Positions 5,316 to 50,071 of a stretch of 64,000 nt of DNA are shown here, piece after piece. Under the pieces are notes generated by a model. That model saw only the letters and a program-made list of their open reading frames with translations, had not been told where the DNA came from and did no database searches. The position numbers and the translations under genes are program-made. The stretch is from the NCBI GenBank assembly GCA_964016885.1, contig OZ024746.1, positions 61,132,001 to 61,196,000 of the forward strand, read 5' to 3'. The DNA comes from Eledone cirrhosa (taxonomy: Eukaryota). The stretch's first letter is position 1, and each line of letters begins with the position of its first letter.

Positions 5316-5318
<3 letters not shown>

Positions 5319-5470
5319 AACGAGTAGGATTCTGGACTAGAATTAGCCGTCGAAACGGCTTGAGCTCAGCCGTCGGGGTCCTACTCGTTCCTATTACCCA
5401 CTCTACTACCCTAAGTATTGAGTACTTTGGTGCGTTATGGTCCACCTGGTTCCTTACCACATTTCCTTCG

Positions 5471-5474
<4 letters not shown>
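5316..5474 (+). repeat. Short interspersed family D, always next to (AT)n
   Basis: Core gccgtcgaaacggcttgagctcagccgtcgggg. Copies at 2893-3082, 6545-6600, 11522-11717, 13220-13280, 13345-13403 and 48797-48935. Confidence 0.75.
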
Positions 5475-5535
<61 letters not shown>

Positions 5536-5824
5536 CAAATAACGAAACGAAATTAAATTTCGTTTCGTTTGTAACTCACTTTTGTATGACTGACGCTTAA
5601 ACAATTAAGTTAAAGATGTACATCCATATATGTATACTGAAATACTAGTATGTATATGAATACACACACGTATACATATGTAGGTGTACCAAGTTTTTTC
5701 ACTGGTCACTTTACTGTGAGTGGCCAGCTATTCTGTATGTAAACACACAGACAAACCGGTTTTTAGAGTCATACTGGTTTTTGAGGAAACACCTCTCCTC
5801 TATTCTTCAGAAAGCCAGACAAGG

Positions 5825-5869
5825 AATATTGAACTAGTTTCGTTGTTGTTACAACTCATCAGCAATATT
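5825..5869 (-). ncRNA. Type-I hammerhead ribozyme (family C, copy 1)
   Basis: aatattg-CTGATGA-gttgt aaca acaac-GAAA-ctag-TT-caatatt: perfect 7-bp stem I and 5-bp stem II. Confidence 0.88.
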
Positions 5870-6291
5870 TACCTATCTTCCGGCCTCTCTAGAGAATCGT
5901 AAAAGCACATATCGTTATATGCTTTTTCTATGAAAATTAGTAGTGGGCAGACTAATTTGCATAGAGTGTGAGTAAGTACCGGTTCAACGGAGACGATAAA
6001 AACAAATAACGAAACGAAATTAAATTTCGTTTCGTTTGTAACTCACTTTTGTATGACTGACGCTTAAACAATTAAGTTAAAGATGTACATCCATATATGT
6101 ATACTGAAATACTAGTATGTATATGAATACACACACGTATACATATGTAGGTGTACCAAGTTTTTTCACTAGTCACTTTACTGTGAGTGGCCAGCTATTC
6201 TGTATGTAAACACACAGACAAACCGGTTTTTAAAGTCATACTGGTTTTTGAGGAAACACCTCTCCTCTATTCTCCAGAAAGCCAGACAAGG

Positions 6292-6336
6292 AATATTGAA
6301 CTAGTTTCGTTGTTGTTACAACTCATCAGCAATATT
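6292..6336 (-). ncRNA. Type-I hammerhead ribozyme (family C, copy 2)
   Basis: Identical to 5825-5869, 467 bp further along. Confidence 0.88.
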
Positions 6337-7189
6337 TACCTATCTTCCAGTATGACTCTAAAAACCGGTTTGTCTGTGTGTTTACATACAGAATAGCTGG
6401 CCACTCACAGTAAAGTGACCAGTGAAAAAACTTGGTACACCTACATATGTATACGTGTGTGTATTCATATACATACTAGTATTTCAGTATACATATATGG
6501 ATGTACATCTTTAACTTAATTATATATATATACATTTATTAGAAAGAGTCGGGACTCGACGGCTGTGCTCTTGCCGTTTCGAGACGGTTAATTCCAGACT
6601 GTTGACAAAACTACCTCAGGGGCGTAACTTAGGTGATTGACGTGTCGGTAAATCGATAAGTTGTCCATATAAGGATAATTGTTTCTACTTTTTAGCACAG
6701 GGCCAGCAATTACCCAGTGTATTACTGGTACTTTATTTTATCAACCCCCGTAAGGATGAAAGGCAAAGTTAACCTCGGCAGGATTTGAACTCAGAATGTC
6801 AAGGGCCGTAACTCCATGCGCCAAAGCATGACGTCCGACCCTCTACCGATACTGCAATGGTTCTTTATAGGTTGTTAAAGAAAAGTTTTAGAATAAAATA
6901 TTTATACTTTTTATATATATTTTATATATTTTGTATACATTTTCCGAGAGTGGTTGTGTCTGTGGATATCTGTTTGCGCGTGTGTGTGTATGTGTTTGTG
7001 TGCGCGTGTGTGTGTGTGTCTATAATTTTTATTCTAATGTGTATATTTATCTATGCATGCATGGATGTATGTGTACATCTATGTGTGTATATTTAAATGA
7101 TGTATGTACGTATGCATGCATGCATTTATGTGTGTGTACATGTATGTATGTATGTATGTATGTATGTATGTATGTATGTATGTATGTAC

Positions 7190-11887: not shown

Positions 11888-13181
11888 GTAAATTAGTGTT
11901 GGCACATTTAATGTATAGATAATAGAAAAGTGTATTGAGAAAAAAATCTCTATTAATCAAGTCCTTGGGGTTATTTCCTCTTCTCCGGTAAGTTCGAGAA
12001 ACAATTCCGGACAACTTTCGGTCTTATTTTAAACCTTACACACAAGATTGTACTTTTGTTAGCGTAGAAAAATATTATTGTTTAACAATTAAATAATTCT
12101 AAGACTTTATTGTCACGAACAATAATAGGTAAAGCAACGCTAACATAGATATGCGGTGAGGGAATAGCAATATTAGTCTCCAAGTGGTGTTATTTCTAGT
12201 TTTCAAAGAATTACTTGTTAATGTATATAAGATACATTTAGGGCAGTGGATTGGCAGTATCGGTGGTGCGCCGGACAACATGCTTTACGGCATAGCTTAG
12301 GGTTAGGCCCCTTTACGATCTGAGTTCAAATCCTGCCGAGGTTAACTTTGCCTTTCAACGTTATGGGGCTGATAAAAGGAAGCACCGGTAATGCACTGGG
12401 ATCGATTTAACCGGCTTGCCCCCCCCCCCCCCCCCAAAAAAAAAGAAAAATTGTTGGCCTTGTACCTAAATCAGAAACCAATATAAAGGATACATCATCA
12501 AGTGATAAAGATTTGTTAATGAAGCTAATGAGTGAGAACAATTACTTAACAAGCCACATAGCCTACCAATGAATCCCATTCGTATGTGAGAATATACTTT
12601 ATTGTAAGCAAGACGCTTTATTTCACGTTGCTCCAGTTTACTCAGTTGTAGAAATGAGTTGCGATCTTGCCAAATCAATGGGTGGCAGTAGTTCCAGCTG
12701 CCACCCATCGAAAGACTGGTGTAGTGGTTCTGAGAACGATGCAGCTTTGCAGATGATCAATGCAAATTGACAATGGAAAGGGGCTCCCGCTCGAGTTAGT
12801 AGAGAACTATTGACCTTCAAGGAGAAGCAGCGACCCCTGATTGTATTCAGCAACCGAAATAAATATGAAGTACACCAAATCCAATGCTCCTGGGGCTGGT
12901 TCTACTTGTTTGCGAGTGTAAACTCGGCCAGATTACATTAGATTAGATTAGATTAGATTTATTCTAACTGCGGAAAAGCTAAATAAACCCGAACAAGCAT
13001 TGAACTGCACTCTTTCAGTTGTTAAAGTATAATCTGTTAAGGTGTTATATCGCGAATATTTTGTTTAGAGTAAGGCTACAAATATTTTTCTGATATACAT
13101 TTAATTGGTTTGCTTGTATACTGATATGTCGCATAAGGTTGTAATTTTCTTTATAGATATACATATATATATATATATATA

Positions 13182-13215
<34 letters not shown>

Positions 13216-13279
13216 CATATTAGTCCAGAATTAGCCGTCGAAACGGCTTGAGCTCAGCCGTCGGGGTCCTATTCATTCC

Positions 13280-13344
<65 letters not shown>

Positions 13345-13403
13345 TAGTCCAGAATTAGCCGTCGAAACGGCTTGAGCTCAGCCGTCGGGGTCCTATTCAT
13401 TCC

Positions 13404-13448
<45 letters not shown>

Positions 13449-13454
13449 ATATAT

Positions 13455-13844
13455 TAGGCTGAGCAGCCTAATTTGCATATCGAGTGAGTTAATCGGGCCG
13501 TACTAAGAGTGAGAAATGAAATTTCCTTTCATTTTTTCCGTTTATCGTTTTCGGTGCCCCGGCCGATTAACTCACTCGATATGCAAATTAGGCTGCTCAG
13601 CCGTTAATATGCATAAGGAAAGTATATACTTTCCGACGTTTAATCATCTGGCAGGAAGGTATACGTTGCTGACGGTAGCTAATAAGCTTGAAACTAGTAC
13701 AGCGTTCCTTTGTCAGTGTTGAACAAATGAGCAACGATGGTTGCTAGACACTACGGCTTAATACGGGATGTTTGTTTACAAACACACCGAGCATTATAAG
13801 AAATGTTCGGTGAATCCATACGTACATATATATATGTGTGCATG

Positions 13845-13880
<36 letters not shown>

Positions 13881-13983
13881 CTACTGTACGTCTGTATACA
13901 TATATGTATGTACGTATACATACTTATATTTAAGTAACAGCCGTACTAAGAGTGAGAAATGAAATTTCGGTTCATTTTTTTCC

Positions 13984-13988
<5 letters not shown>
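13455..13988 (+). mobile_element. Retrozyme-like family B copy; HHR at 13663-13705 (core variant CUGACGG)
   Basis: Slightly more than one unit, with terminal redundancy at 13497 and 13940. A short inverted piece precedes it and (AT)n follows. Confidence 0.75.
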
Positions 13989-14057
<69 letters not shown>

Positions 14058-28969: not shown

Positions 28970-29040
28970 TATTTTATTATGCGCATTTCAAAAACAAATA
29001 TCATCATGAGATGACATTTGCGTTTTCGTCAGATAAAATA
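28970..29040 (-). ncRNA. Type-I hammerhead in the 3' pLTR of the Penelope-like element
   Basis: tattttat-CTGACGA-aaacgcaaatgtcatc...gatatttgttttt-GAAA-tgcgca-TA-ataaaata. Confidence 0.82.
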
Positions 29041-34059: not shown

Positions 34060-34681
<622 letters not shown>

Positions 34682-37392: not shown

Positions 37393-37450
37393 TATATATA
37401 ATATATATATATATAATATATATATATATATAATATATATATATATATAT

Positions 37451-40400
37451 GTGAATATAGACATAGAATATTCGAAAATATTCTGTATGTTTATAATAAA
37501 CATTTTGAAGACCTAATCGCTATAGAATAGAATACGTCACGTATTACAATTAGATTCTCGATAAAAGCAAGGGAAGTAATCTACGCGTTTCATTCTCGTT
37601 AGAAATCATCAGGACTACATATCCAGTGCTTTTATCGAGAATGACACAGCTAGAGACTTATAGAATACTTAGCTGTGTACAGGAACTGGTTTGAAAGAGC
37701 GGTTGCCGGTCCGGCAGAAATTAGAAATTGGAATAAATGCTCTGAAATAGCGATATATATGTGAATATAGACATAGAATATTCGAAAATATTCTGTATGT
37801 TTATAATAAACATTTTGAAGACCTAATCGCTATAGAATAGAATACGTCACGTATTACAATTAGATTCTCGATAAAAGCAAGGGAAGTAATCTACGCGTTT
37901 CATTCTCGTTAGAAATCATCAGGACTACATATCCAGTGCTTTTATCGAGAATGACACAGCTAGAGACTTATAGAATACTTAGCTGTGTACAGGAACTGGT
38001 TTGAAAGAGCGGTTGCCGGTCCGGCAGAAATTAGAAATTGGAATAAATGCTCTGAAATAGCGATATATATGTGAATATAGACATAGAATATTCGAAAATA
38101 TTCTGTATGTTTATAATAAACATTTTGAAGACTTAATCGCTATAGAATAGAATACGTCACGTATTACAATTAGATTCTCGATAAAAGCAAGGGAAGTAAT
38201 CTACGCGTTTCATTCTCGTTAGAAATCATCAGGACTACATATCCAGTGCTTTTATCGAGAATGACACAGCTAGAGACTTATAGAATACTTAGCTGTGTAC
38301 AGGAACTGGTTTGAAAGAGCGGTTGCCGGTCCGGCAGAAATTAGAAATTGGAATAAATGCTCTGAAATAGCGATATATATGTGAATATAGACATAGAATA
38401 TTCGAAAATATTCTGTATGTTTATAATAAACATTTTGAAGACCTAATCGCTATAGAATAGAATACGTCACGTATTACAATTAGATTCTCGATAAAAGCAA
38501 GGGAAGTAATCTACGCGTTTCATTCTCGTTAGAAATCATCAGGACTACATATCCAGTGCTTTTATCGAGAATGACACAGCTAGAGACTTATAGAATACTT
38601 AGCTGTGTACAGGAACTGGTTTGAAAGAGCGGTTGCCGGTCCGGCAGAAATTAGAAATTGGAATAAATGCTCTGAAATAGCGATATATATGTGAATATAG
38701 ACATAGAATATTCGAAAATATTCTGTATGTTTATAATAAACATTTTGAAGACCTAATCGCTATAGAATAGAATACGTCACGTATTACAATTAGATTCTCG
38801 ATAAAAGCAAGGGAAGTAATCTACGCGTTTCATTCTCGTTAGAAATCATCAGGACTACATATCCAGTGCTTTTATCGGGAATGACACAGCTAGAGACTTA
38901 TAGAATACTTAGCTGTGTACAGGAACTGGTTTGAAAGAGCGGTTGCCGGTCCGGCAGAAATTAGAAATTGGAATAAATGCTCTGAAATAGCGATATATAT
39001 GTGAATATAGACATAGAATATTCGAAAATATTCTGTATGTTTATAATAAACATTTTGAAGACCTAATCGCTATAGAATAGAATACGTCACGTATTACAAT
39101 TAGATTCTCGATAAAAGCAAGGGAAGTAATCTACGCGTTTCATTCTCGTTAGAAATCATCAGGACTACATATCCAGTGCTTTTATCGAGAATGACACAGC
39201 TAGAGACTTATAGAATACTTAGCTGTGTACAGGAACTGGTTTGAAAGAGCGGTTGCCGGTCCGGCAGAAATTAGAAATTGGAATAAATGCTCTGAAATAG
39301 CGATATATATGTGAATATAGACATAGAATATTCGAAAATATTCTGTATGTTTATAATAAACATTTTGAAGACCTAATCGCTATAGAATAGAATACGTCAC
39401 GTATTACAATTAGATTCTCGATAAAAGCAAGGGAAGTAATCTACGCGTTTCATTCTCGTTAGAAATCATCAGGACTACATATCCAGTGCTTTTATCGAGA
39501 ATGACACAGCTAGAGACTTATAGAATACTTAGCTGTGTACAGGAACTGGTTTGAAAGAGCGGTTGCCGGTCCGGCAGAAATTAGAAATTGGAATAAATGC
39601 TCTGAAATAGCGATATATATGTGAATATAGACATAGAATATTCGAAAATATTCTGTATGTTTATAATAAACATTTTGAAGACCTAATCGCTATAGAATAG
39701 AATACGTCACGTATTACAATTAGATTCTCGATAAAAGCAAGGGAAGTAATCTACGCGTTTCATTCTCGTTAGAAATCATCAGGACTACATATCCAGTGCT
39801 TTTATCGAGAATGACACAGCTAGAGACTTATAGAATACTTAGCTGTGTACAGGAACTGGTTTGAAAGAGCGGTTGCCGGTCCGGCAGAAATTAGAAATTG
39901 GAATAAATGCTCTGAAATAGCGATATATATGTGAATATAGACATAGAATATTCGAAAATATTCTGTATGTTTATAATAAACATTTTGAAGACCTAATCGC
40001 TATAGAATAGAATACGTCACGTATTACAATTAGATTCTCGATAAAAGCAAGGGAAGTAATCTACGCGTTTCATTCTCGTTAGAAATCATCAGGACTACAT
40101 ATCCAGTGCTTTTATCGGGAATGACACAGCTAGAGACTTATAGAATACTTAGCTGTGTACAGGAACTGGTTTGAAAGAGCGGTTGCCGGTCCGGCAGAAA
40201 TTAGAAATTGGAATAAATGCTCTGAAATAGCGATATATATGTGAATATAGACATAGAATATTCGAAAATATTCTGTATGTTTATAATAAACATTTTGAAG
40301 ACCTAATCGCTATAGAATAGAATACGTCACGTATTACAATTAGATTCTCGATAAAAGCAAGGGAAGTAATCTACGCGTTTCATTCTCGTTAGAAATCATC

Positions 40401-41217
40401 AGGACTACATATCCAGTGCTTTTATCGAGAATGACACAGCTAGAGACTTATAGAATACTTAGCTGTGTACAGGAACTGGTTTGAAAGAGCGGTTGCCGGT
40501 CCGGCAGAAATTAGAAATTGGAATAAATGCTCTGAAATAGCGATATATATGTGAATATAGACATAGAATATTCGAAAATATTCTGTATGTTTATAATAAA
40601 CATTTTGAAGACCTAATCGCTATAGAATAGAATACGTCACGTATTACAATTAGATTCTCGATAAAAGCAAGGGAAGTAATCTACGCGTTTCATTCTCGTT
40701 AGAAATCATCAGGACTACATATCCAGTGCTTTTATCGAGAATGACACAGCTAGAGACTTATAGAATACTTAGCTGTGTACAGGAACTGGTTTGAAAGAGC
40801 GGTTGCCGGTCCGGCAGAAATTAGAAATTGGAATAAATGCTCTGAAATAGCGATATATATGTGAATATAGACATAGAATATTCGAAAATATTCTGTATGT
40901 TTATAATAAACATTTTGAAGACCTAATCGCTATAGAATAGAATACGTCACGTATTACAATTAGATTCTCGATAAAAGCAAGGGAAGTAATCTACGCGTTT
41001 CATTCTCGTTAGAAATCATCAGGACTACATATCCAGTGCTTTTATCGAGAATGACACAGCTAGAGACTTATAGAATACTTAGCTGTGTACAGGAACTGGT
41101 TTGAAAGAGCGGTTGCCGGTCCGGCAGAAATTAGAAATTGGAATAAATGCTCTGAAATAGCGATATATATGTGAATATAGACATAGAATATTCGAAAATA
41201 TTCTGTATGTTTATAAT
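37451..41217 (-). mobile_element. Tandem array of 310-bp units (12 full plus ~47 bp), each with a type-I hammerhead ribozyme; candidate non-LTR retrozyme
   Basis: Units start at 37451+310n. Only three substitutions seen (38132, 38878, 40118). Minus strand of each unit reads gtagtc-CTGATGA-tttct aacg agaat-GAAA-cgcg-TA-gattac. The left end abuts (AT)n. Confidence 0.9.
37576..37618 (-). ncRNA. Type-I hammerhead ribozyme (unit 1; repeated every 310 bp to 40986-41028)
   Basis: Intact core CUGAUGA/GAAA/GUA. Stem I gtagtc/gattac, stem II ttct/agaa, palindromic stem III (CGCG). 16-bp outer helix pairs 37554-37569 with 37627-37642. Confidence 0.88.
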
Positions 41218-41460
41218 ATCGCGTGACTATCTCCCCCTCCGCCTTTTGGGATTCTTTCTCACGTCGTGTAGACGCGTTCTTGAGACTAGTAAAATGAGGT
41301 ATCCTCTTGATAAGTCGGCAGACCTCGCAGAGACTCTATATCTTTATGATGTATTGTTTTTGTTTATGCCACGAAACTACGTAGTCGAGGAATCTAGGAG
41401 CAGTTTAGGTATGATACATTTTATTACTTATTATATCTAAATGTTTCTTCTCTCTTCATA

Positions 41461-42743: not shown

Positions 42744-42826
<83 letters not shown>

Positions 42827-42831
<5 letters not shown>

Positions 42832-43355
42832 GGAAAAAATGAAACGAAATTTCATTTCCCACTCTTAGTACGGCTGTTACTTAAATATAAGTATGTACAC
42901 GTACATACATATATGTATACAGACGTACAGTAGTATGTATATATATACATACATACATGCATACATATATATATGTACGTATGGATTCACCGAACATTTA
43001 TTATAATGCTCGGTGTGTTTGTAAACAAGCATCCCGTATTAAGCCGTAGTGTCTAGCAACCATCGTTGCTCGTTTGTTTAACACTGACAAAGGAACGCTG
43101 TACTAGTTTCAAGCTTATTGGCTATCGTCAGCAACGTATACCTTCCTGCCAGATTGTTGAACGTATATACTTACCTTATGCATATTAACGGCTGAGTAGC
43201 CCAATTTGCATATCGAGTGGGTTAATCGGCCGGGTGCACCGAAAACGATAAACGGAAAAAATGATACGAAATTTCATTTCCCACTCTTAGTACGGCTGTT
43301 ACTTAAATATAAGTATGTACACGTACATACATATATGTATACCGACGTACAGTAG

Positions 43356-49196: not shown

Positions 49197-49582
49197 AAAG
49201 TACGTATACGTACATACATATATGTATACAGACGTACAGTAGTATGTATATACATACATACATGCACACATATATATATATATAATGTACGTATGGGTTT
49301 ACCGAACATTTATTATAATGCTCGGTTTGTTTGTAAACAAACAGCCCGAATTAAACCGTACATTGTTCGGCAACCATCGTTGCCCTATTTGTTCAACACT
49401 GACAAAGGAACGATGAACTAGTTTCTAGCTCGTTAGCTGTCATCAGCACCGTTTATCGTTTTCGGTACGCCTGGCCGACTAACTCACTCGATATGCAATA
49501 TGCAAATTAGGCTGCTCAGCCGTTAATATGCATAAGGAAAGTATATACTTTCAAACGTTCAATCGACTGACAGGAAGGTATA
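49197..49582 (-). mobile_element. Diverged family B copy with inversion; HHR at 49410-49452
   Basis: acggtg-CTGATGA-cagct aacg agcta-GAAA-ctag-TT-catcgt. Substitutions relative to the other copies keep the helices paired. Confidence 0.75.
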
Positions 49583-50071
49583 CATACATACATACATACA
49601 TACATACATACATACATACATACATACATACATACATACATACGTACGTACGTACGTACGTACGTACGTACGTATGTATGTATGTATGTATGTATGTATG
49701 TATGTATGTATGTATGTATGTATGTATGTATGTATGTATGTATGTATAAAAGACACGAGAGAGAGAGTGTGTGTGTGTCCATCAGGTTACAGGGGATACC
49801 ACCAGCGTGTGTTTTCTTCTCTACATTATATTTGAAGAGCCCAGGATTCTGATTCTTTTTCCTTTGAGCTCATGAATAACAGGGACTAACGCGAGTTCCT
49901 GACTCCATTATTTCATTTTGATATATATATATATATATATACATGTGTGTATGTATGTGTGTATGCATGTATGTATGTATGTGTGTATGTATGTATATTT
50001 GTGTGTATGTATGTATGTATGTATGTATGTATGCATGTATATGTATGAATAAGCATATATATGAATATATA

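Follow-up and report, generated by a model that had tools for sequence, protein, structure and literature searches.

Within a 64,000-nt stretch of the Eledone cirrhosa genome (contig OZ024746.1, positions 61,132,001 to 61,196,000; hereafter the window), a non-coding element built of 467-bp units sits in an (AT)n microsatellite. A direct repeat with a lag of 467 covers window positions 5529 to 6349 with three mismatches (5704, 5766 and 5807), and an inverted segment, 6347 to 6521, is an exact match to 5603 to 5777. A preliminary description of this DNA had proposed about 1.75 tandem units with an inverted part-copy in (AT)n, which agrees with our values of 1.76 units and a 175-bp inverted arm. 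Units are numbered from the C that follows the GUU cleavage triplet (position 1), and the element comprises the following parts.

5472-5531: left flank, an (AT)30 microsatellite, the target; it overlaps the element end by microhomology
5529-6348, minus strand: left arm, 1.76 head-to-tail 467-bp units (820 nt), the outer arm; its RNA finishes at the outer fixed 3' end, unit position 303 (...GUUUUUAU), which abuts (AT)n, and the RNA 5' end lies at unit position 418
5529-5602, minus strand: the "tail", unit positions 230-303, at the outer end only, spanning the gap between the fixed ends
5541-5569: 13-bp hairpin within the tail, unit positions 263-291, stopping 12 nt short of the outer end
5825-5869, minus strand: type I hammerhead 2, same core as hammerhead 1, predicted cleavage between 5832 and 5831
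5832-6298, minus strand: the only complete 467-nt monomer of the window copy, bounded by the two predicted cleavage sites
5955-5962, minus strand: octamer ATGCAAAT, unit positions 337-344
6292-6336, minus strand: type I hammerhead 1, predicted GUU^C cleavage between 6299 and 6298
6347-6348: head-to-head arm junction with a 2-nt microhomology, CC
6347-6521, plus strand: right (inverted) arm, 175 bp, covering unit positions 55-229; its RNA finishes at the inner fixed 3' end (...CUUUAACUUAAUU), which abuts (AT)n
6522-6532: right flank, a short (AT)n of about 11 nt; a target-site duplication is unreadable in the repeat

With its outer arm of 820 nt, inner arm of 175 nt and CC overlap, the window copy is typical of its family. 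We infer that the two fixed ends bounding the tail are reverse-transcription start sites. A colinear sister family of 424 bp, also present in the window and about 67% identical to the 467-bp unit, retains the octamer and a hairpin similar to that of the tail, and its arms appear from their sequence to end at homologous places. The hairpin is a candidate protein-binding site and the octamer a candidate promoter element. A role of the snRNA promoter type, for which newt satellite 2 would be the parallel, may be considered for the octamer, although our literature search brought no confirmation of it. The window copy may not be a source copy, since no octamer lies upstream of the first hammerhead and a transcript running through the whole copy would include the 175-nt antisense arm.

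The CUGAUGA motifs of both hammerheads lie on the minus strand, at 6329 and 5862. Each hammerhead consists of a 7-bp helix I, CUGAUGA, a 5-bp helix II, GAAA and a helix III of 2 bp round a 2-nt loop (the palindrome ACUAGU), with predicted cleavage after GUU; in the predicted fold of hammerhead 2, helix I is lengthened so that the structure covers about 5809-5880. The motif had been described as perfect, which is true of the core but does not extend to the whole, given this minimal helix III. Rfam Hammerhead_HH9 matches both hammerheads with an E value of 6e-6 and 37.7 bits, below its gathering score of 52. According to Cervera and de la Pena (2014, PMC4209133), the type I form with a short helix III is the usual one in metazoans and requires a dimer for efficient cleavage. 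Since a 2-bp helix III with GUU cleavage is the architecture described there, the predicted ribozyme of the 467-bp unit probably needs a dimer as well. The 467-nt monomer has a GC content of 35% and a predicted fold of -150.8 kcal/mol (z -8.5); in the circular monomer, helices I and II reach predicted pair probabilities of 0.63-0.99. The longest Met ORF on either strand of a concatemer is 30 aa, and no LTR-like terminal repeats were found in the mapped retrozyme loci. Rfam miRNA matches in the window were dismissed as microsatellite noise.

Across the 3.0-Gb genome, exact hammerhead cores of the 467-bp family occur 9,305 times and exact outer ends, in which unit position 303 meets (TA)n, 1,972 times, the reversed-pattern control giving 0 in both cases. 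The inner-end pattern yielded 1,092 forward-strand matches (control 22; reverse-strand matches redundant), the two ends standing at roughly 1:1. At 467 bp per core, the family totals roughly 4 Mb and has recently supplied this genome with long inverted repeats. Its subfamilies are 85-100% identical to the window unit, with unit lengths of 465-469 bp, and the longest array reaches about 31 units (14.6 kb) at one locus. Three samples were inspected: as the main one, the first 100 listed junctions of the outer end with (TA)n, taken without selection; about 35 score-ranked loci, skewed to long young arrays; and 20 regions chosen from the hammerhead and inner-end lists. One locus of the main sample (L126) duplicates another (L125); it was dropped from the haplotype and arm-length counts and retained among the 100. 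At least one end lies in an (AT)-rich repeat, as judged by eye, in 33 of the 35 loci that a search with the unit had yielded, the other samples having been chosen on (TA)n.

The hammerhead is intact and covarying in nearly every unit of the family. Within helix II, a U-A/A-U swap changes both positions together in all 100 of the core matches listed, a paired change that may be one inherited event. Position H17 is U, C or A, and never G, among the variants listed; the cleavage triplet is GUU or GUC in the family and GUA in the sister family, and 337 of the 338 cleavage-site junctions have the exact length. Judged by sequence, the family is thus a retrozyme by all features examined, being non-coding, tandem and equipped with such a hammerhead, which upholds the identification first made from the window copy. 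Like animal non-LTR retrozymes, it is AT-rich, has one type I hammerhead per unit and a target-site duplication longer than 4 bp, and shares its genome with Penelope-like elements (PLEs). The unit had also been thought unusually long. This we do not maintain: 467 bp is just above the 150-450 bp given for the repeats of non-LTR retrozymes (Cervera and de la Pena 2020, PMC7229834) and within the 51-972 bp of Xenopus retrozyme units (Li, Clavereau and Pollet 2026, bioRxiv 10.64898/2026.07.22.740005).

Could the unit instead be the pseudo-LTR (pLTR) or truncated 3' end of a coding PLE, and not an independent element? The question was already raised in the preliminary description. In favor of this reading, its insertions have the layout of PLE insertions, and our survey sampled the genome rather than censusing it fully. 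However, none of the 100 copies taken without selection leads on into its own ORF, which argues that the 467-bp unit is not a pLTR, and the same holds for the other roughly 55 copies inspected. As many as about 31 units follow one another seamlessly. The similarity of the unit to PLE-A and PLE-B, two autonomous PLE families of this genome, is not significant (best E 0.37). Xenopus retrozymes have pLTR ancestry, with 24 of 57 families matching known transposable elements and PLEs accounting for 21 of 22 (Li et al. 2026), whereas the 467-bp unit is not homologous to its candidate partner's pLTR. No sequence-homologous autonomous parent was present in 30 PLE-A loci, 11 downstream regions of other PLE matches, the PLE-A and PLE-B references or 20 PLE-B2 loci. 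We regard a pLTR origin as largely refuted and very improbable, and treat the 467-bp family as a retrozyme in its own right.

Beyond its ribozyme, the family is distinguished by the way in which its copies are laid out. The usual insertion has two head-to-head arms, both outer ends of which are RNA 3' ends. One of these is fixed at unit position 303 (outer) and the other at 229-234 (inner), 69-74 nt apart, a distance that corresponds to the tail. Among the 100 unselected copies, 76 pair one inner with one outer end (33/41 and 43/59 in two parts of the sample; short stubs scored by eye) and none pairs two outer ends, for which P is about 1e-23 against free choice. The remaining copies include five that ran off the sequence and one unclassified case (L215); the others either stop at a different position or abut (TA)n or other DNA directly. 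The pairing extends to copies that consist of just two back-to-back stubs of about 10-16 nt each (L148, L150 and L152). In the single case with two inner ends (L044), the arms are separated by 950 bp of other DNA, and one-armed copies joined to unrelated DNA also exist (L064, L133 and L137). Inversion is therefore the rule in this family and not an oddity. The survey of copy ends that had been proposed bears out, for the sampled copies, that the inverted arm is general and ends at a fixed site, 229-234. Of 25 exactly mapped arm junctions, 16 have an overlap of 0-3 nt and nine carry inserts of 1-18 nt. Of seven sites inspected for target-site duplications, two that lie outside microsatellites have them, of 14 bp (L045) and 16 bp (L063) with end microhomology counted, the others being ambiguous in repeats.

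The two-armed layout with its fixed ends suggests that a Penelope-type enzyme copies the unit. PLE insertions comprise partial tandems, an inverted 5'-truncated copy and a tail of 30-40 bp at one end (Craig et al. 2021, PMC8557442), and in vitro the PAc protein, a predicted dimer, cuts and extends both strands from two internal start sites that bound the tail (Frangieh et al. 2024, PMC11167929). Similarly, our copies have an inverted arm, a tail at one end, an AT-rich target and two fixed ends that match two reverse-transcription start sites. They differ from PLE insertions in having no ORF, a tail of 69-74 nt instead of 30-40, and arms that are multimers of a small unit. The likeness to Penelope insertions that was noticed in the window copy turns out to be stricter than claimed, in view of the proportion of inner-outer pairs and the lack of outer-outer pairs. 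Neither the strict pairing of one inner with one outer end nor the two-stub insertions are stated in the portions of Craig et al. (PMC8557442) and Frangieh et al. (PMC11167929) considered here.

The points at which the arms stop bear on a different account, namely a satellite whose inversions come from L1-style twin priming, DNA repair or assembly error, with no two-site mechanism. Twin priming of the L1 type also yields head-to-head arms with both outer ends primed from target DNA, and the outer arm is expected to end beside the internal priming site. For this comparison, stub arms under about 25-28 nt were left out, which gave 86 measurable pairs with 172 arm ends. In 79 of the 86 pairs the outer arm runs beyond the inner site, and in just 8 does it end beside that site (5.7 expected, P 0.21); both arms are longer than one unit in 41. 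In addition, the internal site is fixed, unlike in L1 twin priming. The arm ends are scattered rather than placed beside the inner site, which argues against L1-style twin priming. In favor of the satellite account, seven of the 86 outer arms measure 100 nt or less and end in or near the tail, AT-rich ends permit priming by microhomology, and polishing of the assembly can homogenize tandem units; among the last 59 loci, 6 of 36 pairs have an outer arm that ends close to the inner site, and a minority of events look like ordinary twin priming. Against it, the ends vary by no more than a few bases among subfamilies of 85-100% identity and in the sister family, and thousands of dispersed loci with unique junctions are not assembly errors. 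We give this account hardly any weight, and favor target priming at two fixed RNA sites by a Penelope-type enzyme.

What template this enzyme reads can be approached through the arrays themselves. The subfamily agrees between the two arms in 45 of 48 two-armed loci, and in 9 of 74 loci a private non-CpG variant is found in every covering segment of both arms. Young arrays are homogeneous, with 18/18 (L110), 13/13 (L033) and 11/11 (L040) identical units, those of L110 carrying their own 468-nt haplotype. Older long arrays are patchy (identical units 5/17 in L147, 0/8 in L098 and 2/13 in L061), indicating that later turnover at the DNA level adds units or variants. The haplotype switches in two loci (L048, mid-array, and L044), and the arms are discordant or mosaic in L044 and L059; a supposed third discordant locus (L042) proved to be two separate elements. 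In an in-register SNP test between arms (L035 and L060), neither a consistent register nor a consistent period was found. Uniform young arrays are what rolling synthesis after passage through a single monomer should give, a match that is not proof: a uniform donor array read as a linear multimer would yield the same shared haplotypes, and assembly polishing can even out tandem units.

The same two-ended Penelope-type priming might accordingly act on an uncleaved linear multimer, or on two RNAs from one donor, with long arrays growing by unequal exchange in the DNA. Such a template would suit the older arrays, with their patchy shared variants and adjacent identical deletions, and local amplification has been proposed for Xenopus retrozymes (Li et al. 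2026). The weak 2-bp helix III with GUU would allow multimers to survive, and PAc works on unprocessed RNA in vitro (PMC11167929). Two chimeric insertions, described below, would imply two RNA molecules per event. However, a linear template cannot raise the number of units, whereas the young arrays of 11-18 identical units carry locus haplotypes across both arms; moreover, the hammerhead is kept, as helix II and H17 attest. A ribozyme-cut 5' end of the template should cause arm ends to cluster at unit position 1, where no enrichment was seen (14 of 172 ends between -8 and +20, against 10.3 expected; P 0.15), and the lack of such a pile-up at the cleavage site also counts against the linear template. 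On balance we consider a linear template unlikely, and rolling synthesis round a circular monomer remains our preferred reading of the arrays. Unlike the local amplification favored for Xenopus, young arrays of the 467-bp family look made at insertion.

Two autonomous families, PLE-A and PLE-B, likewise sit in (TA)n, their two 3' ends lying about 85 nt from each other, and all four two-armed PLE-B loci in which both ends were seen have one of each. Their proteins contain RW(R/I), DKT, CxCX5C, CxxC and CxH motifs together with a GIY-YIG-like domain at the C terminus, and lack CCHH. By comparison of these motifs with Craig et al. (PMC8557442), we assign both families to the Hydra clade, and an earlier Neptune label was dropped against the clade motifs given there. 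Searches of Pfam returned no real match for the PLE-A and PLE-B proteins, and those of the PDB none for PLE-A. PLE-B carries a canonical hammerhead and looks active from its sequence: 149 of 150 scored matches to its endonuclease are 100% identical to the query, and 821-aa frames were counted by hand in 24 matches. PLE-A has open frames of 713 aa, with a mean pairwise difference of 0.8% among its 30 top-ranked copies. All that the 467-bp unit and PLE-B have in common is the word CUUUAAC ahead of the inner end and a hairpin ahead of the outer one.

In 2 of about 150 insertions, an outer arm of the retrozyme is joined head-to-head to an inner arm of PLE-B with no (TA)n between them. Both arms of one chimera (L054) are young and separated by a 16-nt insert; those of the other (L194) belong to older subfamilies and are separated by a 143-bp RTE-LINE insert. 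If genuine, the chimeras imply that different RNAs can serve for priming at the two DNA ends, which weakens the idea of one circle for both arms. PLE-B is the likely partner of the 467-bp retrozyme, although the two chimeras could be target-site deletions that joined neighboring insertions. Six further candidates (L106, L059, L138, L131, L032 and L156) were set aside as chimeras, as (AT)n lies between the retrozyme and the adjoining PLE; the 4.8-kb gap in L135 is a later RTE LINE insertion and not a PLE, and a junction with a decayed Poseidon-type ORF (L112) is a single ambiguous case.

With the chimeras read as deletions, the mobilizing protein would be PLE-A or another (TA)n-targeting PLE. 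PLE-A is young, has its 713-aa frames, the same target and two ends; several further PLE families were seen, and the one-armed copies on unrelated DNA point in the same direction. Nevertheless, both direct junctions are with PLE-B, none of the about 150 insertions being a retrozyme/PLE-A chimera, and both obey the inner-plus-outer rule with arms roughly matched in age. A helper other than PLE-B is, in our view, somewhat unlikely.

Our preferred reading, to which we give a probability of roughly 0.6, is that the non-coding retrozyme is copied in trans by the RT/GIY-YIG protein of a Hydra-clade PLE, most likely PLE-B, which primes from both ends of a cut (AT)n and likely rolls round a circular monomer. 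All the RNA-level and protein-level steps of this model are inferred from the genomic copies. Arrays would be transcribed into multimers, adjacent hammerheads would cut with the assistance of the dimer, and a host ligase would close the 467-nt monomer into a circle. A dimeric PLE-B protein would bind near the tail hairpin and cut (TA)n, so that priming would occur at 303 from one DNA end and at 229-234 from the other. The two reverse transcriptases would displace strands while travelling round the circular template over varying distances, and the two cDNA ends would be fused by end joining through 0-3 nt of microhomology or small inserts. Older long arrays would afterwards be reshuffled in the DNA. 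Against the model, cleavage was seen in just one of nine Xenopus retrozyme dimers (Li et al. 2026), and PAc insertion proceeds without hammerhead cleavage (PMC11167929).

A more far-reaching form of this model, which we advance tentatively as something short of an even chance, reads the footprints, in their thousands, as those of one dimeric complex that primes a cut (TA)n always at one inner and one outer start site. It would roll round a 467-nt circle that is non-homologous to its helper yet mimics the helper's tail, the chimeras would name an active Hydra-clade helper, and PLE tails, PLE inversions and retrozyme arrays would share one explanation.

For non-LTR retrozymes, circle-templated copying has been hypothesized, with PLEs as candidates (Cervera and de la Pena 2020, PMC7229834). 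The copying of animal retrozymes from circles by PLE reverse transcriptases rests on co-occurrence, pLTR homology and hypothesis (PMC7229834; Li et al. 2026), and the origin of PLE inversions and tails is listed as open by Craig et al. (PMC8557442). The two-armed form of the 467-bp family, both of whose fixed 3' ends lie in (TA)n, differs from the non-LTR retrozymes described in these papers; the word "inverted" is absent from the main text of the 2020 paper (PMC7229834), as are "tail" and "priming" from the text of Li et al. (2026). The section of Craig et al. that deals with Hydra-clade PLEs (PMC8557442, section 11) describes no non-autonomous retrozyme partner. The family is reminiscent of MRC1 and other non-autonomous Chlamys PLEs of Chlamydomonas, which form multicopy head-to-tail insertions via PLE machinery (PMC8557442). 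Those elements generally resemble the 3' end of an autonomous one, whereas the 467-bp unit does not, and it has a canonical hammerhead in a genome of animal type. The element class and each architectural feature are thus already known separately. Their combination in a retrozyme as two-armed insertions, the strict pairing and the retrozyme/PLE chimeras were not found in the literature searched, a search outside whose scope lay most subscription papers, Repbase/Dfam and supplements.

The family offers a defined substrate (a 467-nt unit, starts at 229-234 and 303, and the tail hairpin), a (TA)n target and a named candidate enzyme with near-identical intact ORFs, and about 2,000 natural insertions are available for testing predictions. 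The long-assumed partnership of retrozymes and PLEs thereby becomes testable. If the model is true, retrozyme biology is tied to the integration mechanism of PLEs, and strand-displacing, target-primed reverse transcription can write multi-kilobase arrays from a small RNA circle. If the chimeras are genuine, they name PLE-B as the helper and provide a direct retrozyme-helper pair.

As a separate observation on the 467-bp unit, one of four sequencing runs of unknown kind contained a 497-nt contig (467 + 30), whose length fits a closed cycle and a DNA tandem equally.

Relatives of the 467-bp retrozyme unit and other hammerhead-bearing elements also occur in the window:

2203-2848, 13497-13989, 34082-34589, 42826-43331 and 49222-49583: copies of a sister retrozyme family
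37443-41218: array of 12.2 almost identical 310-bp units (hammerhead on the minus strand)
1913, 14713, 17414, 29032, 32234, 32488 and 54151: hammerhead motifs with a long helix II, near element ends

The sister family, with a unit of ~424 bp, is colinear with the 467-bp unit at an identity of ~67-72% (local hits), and the two share the ACUAGU palindrome of helix III, the hairpin of the tail and the octamer that is our candidate promoter element. Several of its copies in the window likewise have two arms. The 310-bp unit, which carries a type I hammerhead of its own with the palindrome ACGCGU, is unrelated in sequence to the 467-bp unit and lacks the octamer; it was also found at two further genomic loci, L054 and L087, and the array is probably what the preliminary description had reported as the first retrozyme family of the window.

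After most of the seven long-helix-II motifs comes (TA)n. Two of the motifs, at 29032 and 32234, are of the type of PLE-B, the likely mobilising Penelope-like partner of the 467-bp unit, while the remaining five belong to further PLE-like families. PLE-A (L155-L160 and L073) is a young Hydra-clade family with open frames of 710-713 aa, in which the core of the hammerhead-like motif reads CAGAAGA, not CUGANGA, in every copy seen. Three near-full-length, non-tandem PLE-A copies start at the same point within 2 nt, upstream of the ATG.

Retrozyme and Penelope-like sequences are also found joined to each other. Two-armed chimeras, with a retrozyme outer arm and a PLE-B inner arm, lie at:

L054, 4753-6933
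L194, G000:C1:78802548-78807548

The L194 junction contains a 143-bp fragment of an RTE LINE, and the arm junction of L220 a 60-nt insert. At L112 (G000:C1:41489145-41494145), a retrozyme arm abuts a decayed Poseidon-type PLE ORF with no (TA)n between them.

In L110 (G000:C1:30831300-30841200), a two-armed array of ~20 units of the 467-bp family, all 19 covering segments share a variant at base 1 of the conserved octamer. At L061, L060, L048, L044 and L059, haplotypes alternate in two-unit patterns and the subfamily switches mid-array. Either dimer circles or template switching may have produced these patterns, as may gene conversion at a later stage.

When window positions 5480-6600 were compared with runs X1, X4, X5 and X6 (DNA or RNA, labelled as four different coded organisms, A-D), near-identical 467-bp unit sequences were recovered, the X4 version having a GUC triplet and a swapped helix II pair. 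Beyond the (AT)n runs, the window copy is flanked by other short repeated elements (5316-5472 and 6533-6620), of which the left one has an internal inverted repeat and occurs a second time at ~13157-13454.
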